From: a virus
Lineage: Duplodnaviria > Heunggongvirae > Uroviricota > Caudoviricetes
IMG/VR virus record: IMGVR_UViG_2711768074_000029
Coordinates: 1-11,677 of that record
Reading direction: 5' to 3' (one strand)
Length of the DNA: 11,677 nucleotides
Below the pieces are notes generated by a model. The model did not search any database. It saw only the letters and a program-made list of their open reading frames with translations, and was not told where the DNA came from. The translations under genes were made by a program, and so were the position numbers. This document shows positions 5,362-10,148 of this stretch, in pieces; position 1 is the stretch's first letter, and each line of letters begins with the position of its first letter.

Positions 5362-5483
5362 GAAACCAGAACATGCACACACAAAAAAACCGCTTGCCAT
5401 GCCGCAATCAGTCAGGTTACATTTCCGCTGCACCTCACAAAACGGGTGTCGGGTTTCGCAGCCTGCTGACTACACAAGCGCAC

Positions 5484-5504
5484 AACCGCGCCAGCGGTTT
5501 TTTT
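5484..5504 (+). terminator. Intrinsic terminator-like hairpin within the early region
   Basis: Stem aaccgc (5484-5489), loop gcca, gcggtt (5494-5499), followed by a 7-T run to 5504. Confidence 0.45.
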
Positions 5505-5683
5505 GTGCGTACTGTATTGCCACGTTTTTTTCGCGTCAGAATTATGGCGGGGCGTACGGGGCCGACTTCGGTCGGGCCGGGTTCTTGTGTAGCCGGTACT
5601 GCGAACCTCGTACGTCTCGCCACCCACAGTTTCGCAGCTCTGGATGGTGAGTTTTCACAACTTACTACACAAGGGGCCACACC

Positions 5684-5860
5684 ATGGCAAACCGCAGACT
5701 TTCCCGCGCATCACGCGTCGCGCAAATCATGCACATCAATATGCTGCATGAGCGCAGCCACGCACTATCAAACATTTATTCCGCCTCTGTTTTCAGCTAT
5801 CTGGCGGATGATCTGCACGAGCTTCAACAGCTCATCCAGCAGCAAAACAAACTCCATTAA
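5684..5860 (+). CDS. Small hypothetical protein, 58 aa (below the ORF-track cutoff)
   Basis: AAGGGG (5671-5676) 7 nt before ATG 5684; stop TAA 5858-5860. Translation MANRRLSRASRVAQIMHINMLHERSHALSNIYSASVFSYLADDLHELQQLIQQQNKLH. Confidence 0.45.
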   Translation: MANRRLSRASRVAQIMHINMLHERSHALSNIYSASVFSYLADDLHELQQLIQQQNKLH

Positions 5861-5932: not shown

Positions 5933-6298
5933 ATGATTCTCGCCAACGACTTTCTTGAATACCTGCTCAACACAGAACGTGATCTTGCCGCTCGCGTGCG
6001 TGATCGTTATGACATGTACCAGAAATCCCTGCCTGTACCGCAGCTCGCTGACGGAAAGATTGTTATTGATGGTCGCTACATGATTGACAGCCACGAGGGA
6101 AATTACAGGCTTTACCGCATTGAAGGTGGCACCCCGTCCGTTATTGGCATTTACCAGCGCCCATCCTCTGCAATCGTCGATGTGATTGCCGACAGCATCC
6201 GCATCACACATCGCCATGCCGACACAGAAGACACCGTGCTGGAAATTCAGCGGCTGGCTGCCGTCTGCCGCGACACCCTGAATGGCATGACGAAGTAA
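5933..6298 (+). CDS. Hypothetical protein immediately upstream of gpA, 121 aa
   Basis: AAGAGGA (5918-5924) 8 nt before ATG 5933. Stop lies 6 nt before the gpA start. Confidence 0.6.
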   Translation: MILANDFLEYLLNTERDLAARVRDRYDMYQKSLPVPQLADGKIVIDGRYMIDSHEGNYRLYRIEGGTPSVIGIYQRPSSAIVDVIADSIRITHRHADTEDTVLEIQRLAAVCRDTLNGMTK

Positions 6299-9188: not shown

Positions 9189-10148
9189 ATGAAAATTTGT
9201 ATCGACGACGGCTCCACCAACATCAAGCTGGCATGGACTGAGAACGGCGAACGCCGCAACGCCATCAGCCCGAACAGCTTCAAGTCGGAATGGTCTGCGC
9301 CGTTCGGTGGCACGCAGCCCGCGAACTACATGCTTGATGGCGTGCGCTATGGTTTTGATCCGGTCAGCGATCGCTTTGTCCAGACGACCGACACGCAATA
9401 CCAGTACAGCGATGTGAATGTAATCGCCATTCACCACGCGCTGGTCAAATCAGGCATCACACCACAGGAAGTGGATGTGGTTGTTACCCTGCCACTGAGC
9501 GAGTATTTCGACACAAACGCACAGCCGGACATGGCCAACATCAACCGCAAAAAAGCGAACGTTATGCGCCCGGTGGAGTACCAGAACGGCGAGGCATTCA
9601 CTATCCGTAACGTGCGGGTTATGCCTGAATCCATTCCGGCTGGCTTTAAAGCACTGGCTGACATGAGTCCGTTTGAATCCCTGCTGATTGTGGATTTGGG
9701 CGGAACCACGCTGGATGTGGCAAAGGTTCAGGGGCAACTGGCAGGTATCAGCCAGGTGTTTTGCGATCCACACGTAGGCGTTTCTCTGATGGCCGATGCC
9801 GTACTGTCGGTGATGGCCACTAACGGTATGCGCACCAGTCACCACATCGCCAATACCATTATCGAACGTCGCCATAATGAAGCCTGGCTGCGCCAGCACA
9901 TCCACAATGACGCGCATTACGCCAGCCTGATGGCGGTTATTCGTGAAAAGGAAGAAACACTGAAACAACGCGTGATCCGCGCGCTGGCGGTTTTTTCGGG
10001 TTACGGGCGGGTGATGGTTGTCGGTGGCGGGGCGGAGATTGTGGCACCCGCTATCCGCGAAGCCTGCGGAGTTAATGCGACTTTCATCGCGGACGGGGTG
10101 CCACAGTTTGCTCTGGTTAATGGGCTGTACGCAATGGACAAGGAGTAA
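9189..10148 (+). CDS. parM: Actin-like segregation ATPase, ParM/StbA family
   Basis: 319 aa. N-terminus MKICIDDGSTNIKLAW matches R1 ParM (MLVFIDDGSTNIKLQW). Further matches: YSDVNVIAIHHAL, NVRVMPESIPAGF, LLIVDLGGTTLD, VMVVGGGAE and the C-terminal LVNGLY. AAGGA SD 8 nt upstream. Confidence 0.9.
   Translation: MKICIDDGSTNIKLAWTENGERRNAISPNSFKSEWSAPFGGTQPANYMLDGVRYGFDPVSDRFVQTTDTQYQYSDVNVIAIHHALVKSGITPQEVDVVVTLPLSEYFDTNAQPDMANINRKKANVMRPVEYQNGEAFTIRNVRVMPESIPAGFKALADMSPFESLLIVDLGGTTLDVAKVQGQLAGISQVFCDPHVGVSLMADAVLSVMATNGMRTSHHIANTIIERRHNEAWLRQHIHNDAHYASLMAVIREKEETLKQRVIRALAVFSGYGRVMVVGGGAEIVAPAIREACGVNATFIADGVPQFALVNGLYAMDKE

Follow-up and report, generated by a model that had tools for sequence, protein, structure and literature searches.

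A candidate C4/IsrK-type RNA immunity module in the early operon of a P88-like Escherichia coli prophage

The immI region of phages P1 and P7 (c4, a1/b1, a2/b2, icd, ant) is the system after which the Rfam C4 family is named, and heteroimmunity in P1/P7 arises by specificity swaps. The immunity region of satellite phage P4 runs in the order PLE, seqA, t1, cI (CI RNA), seqC, kil/eta, and epsilon; the designations t1 and t4 reportedly follow Briani et al. from the year 2000. The processed C4/CI RNA is a trans-acting repressor in both P4 and P1 (PMC4825925, PMC3632133, PMC10111431), and IsrK has already been equated with seqA, and C4 with CI (PMC3632133, PMC4825925, PMC10111431). The eta gene of P4 overlaps seqA and cI; it is translatable only from an upstream promoter, and its translation prevents termination (PMC10111431). 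In the Gifsy-1 prophage of Salmonella, the C4-like RNA STnc1160 is lost upon deletion of the isrK promoter, and expression of the anti-repressor needs read-through from the isrK promoter, pairing of the b1-type residues G28/G31 with the downstream RNA, and translation of orf45 (PMC4825925). Hfq binding and a trans-activator role of IsrK have been demonstrated for Gifsy-1 only (PMC4825925).

The stretch of DNA analyzed here (the window, 11.7 kb) covers the early region, from integrase to ParM, of an E. coli prophage of the P88-like kind (Xuanwuvirus, P2 family). Its genes stand in the order integrase, P2 C-type repressor, early genes, wHTH, orf99, island, epsilon-like gene, orf121, gpA, and ParM (Table 1). 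Sequence comparison and the analogy with homologues make it likely that the island is an RNA immunity/anti-repressor module of the P4, P1/P7, and Gifsy-1 kind, placed in the early operon of a P88-like prophage, in which C4 would repress and translation of an eta-like frame would override the repression. The region of the island shares 99% identity with phages PhiR44_2 and P884B11; with P88, the identity is 89% at 83% query coverage. Searches against NCBIfam gave zero hits for the 187-residue product of the eta-like frame, the epsilon-like protein, orf121, and orf99, and only matches far under the cut-off for the wHTH protein; a Pfam search with orf121 was also without a hit. A LexA box (CTGT-N8-ACAG) was considered as well and set aside, as the four matches compare with 3.6 expected and none is close to the node.

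Table 1. Positions of genes, RNAs, and recognition elements in the window; RNAs, promoters, and functional names are predictions.
Feature	Start	End	Strand	Remarks
P2 C-type immunity repressor	2035	2346	-	36% identity to P2 C, E = 2e-23; HTH_3 domain
MarR-type wHTH protein	4799	5065		
orf99	5062	5361		directly before the island
Eta-like reading frame, 187 codons	5373	5936	+	ATG start; covers IsrK, t1, C4, and the targets
A-tract (A7 at 5384-5390)	5377	5397	+	directly 5' of the -35 hexamer; UP-element-like
Candidate internal sigma-70-like promoter TTGCCA-18-TACATT	5394	5423	+	consensus match only; predicted start ~5430
IsrK/P4 seqA-type RNA	5430	5504	+	hairpin 1, b1 hairpin, single-stranded a1, t1 terminator
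b1 target	5453	5462	+	core TTCGCAG at 5455-5461; displayed in a hairpin loop inside the isrK-type RNA
a1 target CTACACAAG	5470	5478	+	single-stranded, inside the isrK-type RNA
Intrinsic terminator, equivalent of P4 t1/IsrK terminator	5484	5504	+	hairpin and T7; covered by the isrK model
Second promoter-like match TTGCCA-17-AATTAT	5517	5545	+	probably non-functional
C4/P4 CI-type antisense RNA	5545	5627	+	closing stem, two hairpins, CCACCC tail
a' recognition sequence CTTGTGTAG	5584	5592	+	within the 12-nt loop of hairpin 2
b' recognition sequence CTGCGAA	5599	5605	+	single-stranded junction of C4
b2 target	5629	5638	+	core TTCGCAG at 5631-5637; just 3' of C4
Hairpin between b2 and a2	5645	5667	+	5' arm TGGTGAG (5645-5651)
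a2 target CTACACAAG	5665	5673	+	overlaps Shine-Dalgarno AAGGGG (5670-5675) of the epsilon-like gene
P4 epsilon-like "derepression" (anti-repressor) gene	5684	5860	+	first regulated gene, after a2
orf121	5933	6298	+	downstream gene placed under the node
gpA replication endonuclease	6305	9112	+	Pfam Phage_GPA, E = 1e-130

The arrangement is closest to that of P4. In both, promoter (in the window, the candidate site), b1, a1, intrinsic terminator, CI, b2, a2 over the Shine-Dalgarno sequence, and ATG follow one another in this order; an overlapping frame begins upstream of the promoter and lies in the identical frame relative to C4 (orf199, eta, in P4); an epsilon homologue is found downstream, and replication genes further on. 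The setting differs, since the window belongs to a complete P2-family phage with gpA, whereas P4 is a satellite with the alpha primase; the module in the window follows the early promoter and cox, that of P4 a late promoter. The spacer between t1 and C4 is also shorter, ~35 nt in the window against ~100 nt in P4. In contrast to P4, the window is without a Kil/Icd-like segment: the epsilon-like gene directly follows a2 and is overlapped, in a different register, by the eta-like frame. When a Kil/Icd-like first gene after seqC was looked for with the NCBIfam model phage_ICD_like, residues 146-193 of P4 Eta matched, and the ORFs of the window gave no hit.

The window shares with P1/P7 the Rfam C4 family, the use of two short recognition sequences with targets both upstream and downstream, and the position of the downstream target over the ribosome-binding site of the gene that opens an anti-repressor operon. 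However, the regulated protein is P4 epsilon-like and not Ant, icd is absent, and the upstream target region has a terminator and scores as isrK, not as c4-a1b1. The isrK - orf45 (STnc1160) - anrP locus of Gifsy-1 resembles the window in its Rfam isrK family, in a frame over the C4-like RNA that is coupled to the next gene, and, as predicted for the window, in terminator read-through giving a long transcript, in pairing of b1-type residues with a downstream structured RNA, and in an anti-repressor output. In contrast to the window, Gifsy-1 is lambdoid, and AnrP belongs to another protein family.

The first-pass annotation of this DNA, made from the letters alone, had suggested a small structured RNA in the island; our analysis revealed two, an isrK-type and a C4-type RNA, both over the Rfam gathering scores. 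The C4 model (RF01695; gathering score 45) matched over its full length, model positions 1-87, with 83.2 bits at 5540-5627 (E = 1.3e-15). The architecture is that of the family, with a long closing stem of 17 bp (5545-5561 with 5606-5622), two hairpins, a single-stranded junction, and, at the 3' end, the CCA-like tail CCACCC. Hairpin 1 is the hairpin with a UUCG loop already noticed in the first pass (CCGAC-UUCG-GUCGG, 5562-5575), and hairpin 2 (5576-5597) displays the 12-nt loop. The minimum free energy of the RNA is -47.6 kcal/mol (z = -4.15), and the corresponding structure is identical to the model structure. The closing stem is 100% paired across 22 relatives, with four compensatory pairs. 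Furthermore, a' and b' are complementary to a1/b1 upstream and to a2/b2 downstream at the ribosome-binding site, as is characteristic of RF01695.

The isrK model (RF01394; gathering score 50) matched upstream of C4 with 61.9 bits at model positions 1-77, and the RNA ends in an intrinsic terminator, as membership of this family demands; the hairpin with T7 had been recognized as terminator-like before. The c4-a1b1 model (RF03163) overlaps the isrK match and gave 19.9 bits, under its gathering score of 46.7, and P4, with 44.1 bits, likewise falls just under this score. On the same models, cI of P4 reaches 74.9 bits (C4), and seqA with t1 reaches 60.8 bits (isrK). The P2 early region gave zero matches to C4 or isrK, so that the module cannot count as a general feature of P2.

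The repeats described in the first pass are the recognition elements of these RNAs. On the plus strand, the 9-mer CTACACAAG stands at 5470 and again at 5665, and its complement is found at 5584; these are its only three matches in the window (0.06 expected; 0 of 200 shuffles), and the 10-mer GTTTCGCAGC was found at 5453 and 5629, as had been reported. The first pass had overlooked CTGCGAA at 5599-5605, which is complementary to the core of the 10-mer and lies in the same structured RNA as the inverted 9-mer. In every relative, a2 adjoins the Shine-Dalgarno sequence, 8-10 nt ahead of the ATG. Nearly all differences between the window and P88 fall in the six a/b elements, where the three copies of each have changed in step and complementarity is kept: for the a element, CTACACAAG/CTTGTGTAG in the window correspond to CAACTACAG/CTGTAGTTG in P88, and for the b element, TTCGCAG/CTGCGAA correspond to TTTCCAC/GTGGAAA.

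Relatives were gathered by scanning viral contigs with the invariant 21-mer of C4 hairpin 1, and this scaffold proved to be common to 120 contigs. They carry 27 a'/b' combinations, made up of 22 a' loops and 11 b' junctions. In nearly all classes, sequences complementary to a' stand at fixed distances on either side of it, and the same holds for b'. The longest complement to a sequence's own targets averages 8.3 (a1), 8.9 (a2), 7.1 (b1), and 7.2 nt (b2), against 4.4-4.8 nt for foreign targets. The covariation check proposed in the first pass was run on a 22-sequence alignment of relatives with differing specificities, and the a/b pairings hold in 93-98% of cells. The pairing of a1/b1 with a'/b' is realized in 97.7% of cases with compensatory changes at 13 of 16 pairs (a1-a' helix, 95.9% and 7/9; b1-b' helix, 100% and 6/7), and that of a'/b' with a2/b2 in 92.9% with compensatory changes at 11 of 16, whereas slid controls are 27-50% paired. 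These comparisons indicate that the a/b repeats are the RNA-RNA recognition partners of the C4 loop and junction. The hairpin between b2 and a2 was also considered as a conserved structure and rejected, as it is 82% paired with zero compensatory change; its 5' arm, TGGTGAG, also complements positions 5616-5622 on the 3' side of the C4 stem, and TTTT comes directly after it.

The product of the epsilon-like gene matches the Pfam Derepression family (PF25738; cut-off 27) with 28.6 bits, and a full-length relative reaches 32.7 bits. This relative is 29% identical to P4 epsilon (BLASTP, E = 4e-9). Relative to P88, the gene in the window has a 54-bp (18-codon) in-frame deletion, through which the epsilon-like protein of the window may be non-functional. 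On sequence grounds, the P2 C-type repressor encoded in the window is plausibly the target that the epsilon-like protein would inactivate. Mitomycin C induces P88 but not P2 (PMC5285337).

The first-pass annotation saw no convincing ORF in the island. However, an ATG-initiated frame of 187 codons on the plus strand runs across it, beginning upstream of the internal candidate promoter, 11 nt after the stop codon of orf99, and ending in a TGA that overlaps the ATG of orf121 (ATGA, 5933-5936). Over the island, 70 of 78 distinct relatives have no stop in this frame, whereas the other five frames are open in 0-12 of the 78, with an average of 2.5-4.5 stops. The ATG of the eta-like frame either shares nucleotides with the stop of the gene before it (ATGA) or follows that stop within 14 nt, and this holds across many unrelated upstream contexts. 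Thus, at the sequence level, the locus has the P4-type arrangement of an eta-type ORF that begins upstream of the promoter and is coupled to the preceding gene. Two relatives illustrate how the frame is maintained: in L038, it is kept open by +1 before C4 and +2 in the a' loop, and in L087 by +1 in b1 and -1 before b2. Since the compensating indels of L038 keep the frame open while rewriting ~20 residues, it is the continuity of the frame that is conserved, not its amino-acid sequence.

The last 80 codons of the eta-like frame are the +1 frame of the epsilon-like gene. This +1 frame is stop-free in eight alleles, which are related, and random synonymous recoding leaves it open in 0.5-34% of trials per allele; an open frame is thus only moderately improbable by chance, which is suggestive, not decisive. 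In Rha-type relatives, the eta-like frame runs on without a break into the regulated Rha gene, in the nested manner of eta and kil in P4. The first-pass annotation had regarded a conserved frame across the region as evidence against its own reading. Such a frame is present, yet it leaves an RNA function standing, because eta of P4 overlaps seqA and cI likewise (PMC10111431).

From the homologues, we infer the promoter, the RNA ends, RNase P cleavage, the involvement of Rho, and the direction of control (C4 repression/IsrK activation). In a lysogen, the P2 C-type repressor would shut the early promoter, and the internal candidate promoter would be constitutive. Most transcripts from the latter would stop at t1 and give an IsrK-like RNA of ~75 nt, and those that read through would yield a stable C4 RNA of ~78 nt, cut at its 5' end by RNase P and with a CCA-like 3' end. 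Pairing of C4 with a2/b2 would hide the ribosome-binding site of the epsilon-like gene and cause premature termination, keeping the anti-repressor, orf121, and gpA off, and a superinfecting phage of identical a/b specificity would be silenced by C4 in the same way. Pairing with a1/b1 would boost termination at t1, which would amount to autoregulation. Surplus IsrK might titrate C4 or open the structure, switching translation on as in Gifsy-1. During lytic growth, transcripts from the upstream early promoter would include the eta-like start codon, and ribosomes crossing t1, C4, and the targets up to the start of orf121 would override both termination and antisense control, so that gpA could be made.

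It is possible, albeit rather doubtful, that the activator logic of the Gifsy-1 IsrK type dominates. The read-through transcript would then fold in cis into a translationally silent structure, in which b1/a1 of IsrK are paired with b'/a' of C4; once this was opened, the frame of an orf45-like ATG at 5544 would be translated, coupled to expression of orf121, gpA, and the epsilon-like gene, and the node would be an induction trigger and not an immunity repressor. The window shares its Rfam family and architecture with Gifsy-1, in which this logic has been supported by experiment (PMC4825925). The ATG at 5544 lies in the eta-like frame at the conserved 5' flank of C4, equivalent to that of Gifsy-1 orf45, and the frame ends in ATGA with orf121. 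The mitomycin C inducibility that distinguishes P88 from P2 (PMC5285337) also fits a trigger. In contrast, processed C4/CI is a trans-acting repressor in P4 and P1, and a2 over the Shine-Dalgarno sequence of the epsilon-like gene is the classic geometry of repression. The two logics are not mutually exclusive and can coexist.

The site TTGCCA-18-TACATT aligns with the TTGCCT...TATAGT region of P4, and the isrK model begins at 5430; by this alignment, the candidate promoter is the positional equivalent of PLE of P4 and of the isrK promoter. The first-pass annotation had overlooked this better-placed site and proposed a promoter at TTGCCA-17-AATTAT (5517-5545, plus strand), a sequence that is present but unlikely to act as one. 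The corresponding proposal, that C4 is an independent small-RNA gene with its own promoter at this site, appears improbable. The site matches the consensus at 9 of 12 positions, and AATTAT is conserved in P88-like and Rha-type loci. However, the start, ~7 nt past 5545, would fall within the closing stem of C4, the -35 hexamer is variable in relatives (TCGCCA, TCGTCA, TTGCTA), and sequence comparison shows that the site is missing from P4 and P4-like loci, whose spacer is different and without such hexamers. AATTAT also fits the conserved 5' flank of C4 in the Rfam model (uuuuAuGG), so that it is not necessarily a -10 element, and in Gifsy-1, STnc1160 vanishes without the isrK promoter (PMC4825925). 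Because of the start inside the C4 stem, the variable -35 hexamer, the absence from P4-like loci, and the dependence on the isrK promoter in Gifsy-1, we favor 5394-5423 as the sole promoter of the node. Of the internal node that had been proposed ahead of gpA, termination and regulation are thus supported, and re-initiation at 5517-5545 is judged unlikely.

The complementarity between the T-run of the terminator and the A7CCGC region that had been noted in the first pass was found to extend over a 21-nt inverted repeat, in which 5377-5397 forms the 5' arm and 5490-5510 (the 3' arm of t1 and the U-tract) the 3' arm, with 90% complementarity and a folding z of -5.0. The A-run is kept in one relative with a different t1 stem (L075) and is absent from the Rha-type L004 and from P4. 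Pairing of the two arms as a conserved antiterminator was therefore considered unsupported beyond the close P88-like group.

A plain protein-coding gene of the Ash/Eta family, with incidental RNA-like features, is a very improbable account of the region. The frame is indeed conserved and open, RefSeq labels it as an "ash family protein" pseudogene in relatives, and there is a weak match to Phage_ASH (PF10554) of 24.8 bits, just under the cut-off of 26; for comparison, P4 Eta scores 82.4, the relative L016 105.9, and the Rha-type L004 39.3 bits. A BLASTP comparison of the 187-residue product with P4 Eta was non-significant (E = 1.5), and only the shared frame and the sub-threshold Ash match suggest a link between the two. 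On the other side, two Rfam models score well over threshold, substitutions are complementary between distant sites and not concentrated at synonymous positions, the indels of L038 alter ~20 residues and spare only the openness of the frame, and the C-terminal 80 residues are an alternative frame of a bona fide epsilon homologue. The further suggestion of the first pass, protein-binding iterons, taken here to include operators for a phage protein (wHTH, C, or gpA), deserves next to no credence although the 9-mer and the 10-mer have direct and inverted copies close to a replication gene, since in each element one copy is without exception the reverse complement and sits in the loop or junction of a folded RNA, change across relatives is strictly complementary with G-U pairs tolerated, a/b specificities reassort independently of the flanking protein genes, and the homologous sites of P4 and Gifsy-1 are by experiment sites of RNA-RNA pairing (PMC4825925).

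Complete E. coli genomes carry the node in about one case in five (1,152 of 5,426), and RefSeq shows there an unannotated gap or an "ash family protein" pseudogene. In E. coli FDAARGOS_946, the node is 100% identical to that of the window. Among 122 scaffold loci, ~85 have the order epsilon-like gene, (orf121), gpA, and ParM, 22 are of the Rha type, and five have kil followed by alpha as in P4. The module type is well known; its occurrence in P88-like phages is one for which a literature search found no description.

We tentatively suggest that P88-like phages of the helper type took over a satellite RNA immunity cassette. The cassette may gate the epsilon-type anti-repressor against their own or a rival P2 C-type repressor, together with the replication genes, and may act as a sensor of the promoter of origin, while the a/b sequences may serve as bar-codes that mediate immunity and cross-talk among co-resident prophages and satellites. 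If the sensor reading is true, C4 would silence transcripts from the internal promoter, and those from the early promoter would escape through eta-like translation; the eta-like frame would then be open purely for continuity, even where it passes out of frame through the epsilon-like gene. The a/b codes are shared by P2-like, lambdoid, and P4-like elements, with at least 22 a' loops and at least 11 b' junctions on one scaffold, and a shared cassette would tie helpers to satellites.

With such a module, it becomes understandable that a P2-family early operon is interrupted, ahead of the essential gpA, by a terminator and an antisense RNA. Furthermore, the epsilon-type anti-repressor becomes a candidate for the switch that induces P88-like phages, which respond to mitomycin, whereas P2 is non-inducible. 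Existing models are not overturned by the node. The three-way co-variation over 27 specificity combinations provides clean natural data on how heteroimmunity evolves in RNA-based immunity.

Our analysis revealed that the a' and b' specificities of the C4-type antisense RNA reassort independently of each other among viral contigs L003-L122, where 27 a'/b' combinations are carried on a single invariant scaffold and the b' sequence CTGCGAA occurs with at least eight different a' loops. The scaffold is common to P88-like, Rha-type (lambdoid-like) and P4-like elements. At the P4-like locus L016, b' reads TTTCCAC and is thereby complementary to P88 b' GTGGAAA; this match may have arisen by chance or may reflect helper-satellite cross-talk.

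In the closing stem of C4, the 3' strand can also pair with a complement just 3' of the downstream target b2, and this pairing was kept in 98.7% of cells among 22 relatives. P4 keeps it with wholly different sequences (GCTATCGCC/GGCGATAGC), as does L016 (GCTACCACC/GGTGGTAGC). The pairing would give rise to an alternative hairpin whose loop contains b2 and which is followed by a U-run; P4 t4 may be its counterpart.

A 21-nt inverted repeat links the region before the internal promoter to the t1 terminator, where its second arm covers the U-tract and the 3' arm of t1; the span between the outer ends of its arms folds with z = -5.0. In transcripts starting upstream of the internal promoter, and only in these, the 5' arm would be present to sequester this part of the terminator. 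The repeat could be a promoter-of-origin antiterminator, or its 5' arm could be merely a UP-element-like A-tract; in the relatives compared, the pairing has no co-variation support beyond the P88-like group.

Coordinates of the features discussed (window positions unless a compared sequence is named)
Feature	Position	Strand	Remark
a' (C4 loop)	5584-5592	+	
b' (C4 junction)	5599-5605	+	
C4 closing stem, 3' strand	5616-5622	+	CTCGCCA
Complement of this strand	5645-5651	+	TGGTGAG; just 3' of b2
U-run	5652-5655	+	TTTT
Inverted repeat, 5' arm	5377-5397		
Inverted repeat, 3' arm	5490-5510		
eta-frame translation	5373-5683	+	
eta-frame translation, L126	1194-1463		
eta-frame translation, L001	6074-6334		
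eta-orf99 fusion, L037	4598-5530	-	
epsilon-like gene	5684-5860		deletion junction ~5690/5691
ParM-type gene and partner	9189-10148 and downstream		directly 3' of gpA

The Pfam family Phage_ASH, like the PGAP name "ash family protein", stands for the seqA-t1-CI-seqC RNA region translated in the eta frame. RefSeq therefore either marks this RNA module as a truncated pseudogene or gives it no annotation, and never lists it as an ncRNA. Single-base differences create in-frame fusions of the eta-like frame, with the upstream orf99 in contig L037 and with the downstream orf121 in contigs L010 and L038. These fusions fit selection for uninterrupted translation, as opposed to one particular protein.

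Compared with P88 and PV468777, the epsilon-like gene has lost 54 bp in frame, the deletion lying between two AACCGCA repeats, and its product has 58 amino acids instead of 76, with residues 5-22 missing. Viral contigs L029 and L070 carry the same allele, as does E. coli FDAARGOS_946; it is therefore a circulating variant, possibly encoding a defective anti-repressor.

A ParM-type actin-like segregation gene and a partner gene follow gpA immediately, an unusual arrangement in an integrating P2-family phage. Their presence hints at a plasmid-like phase of this prophage.
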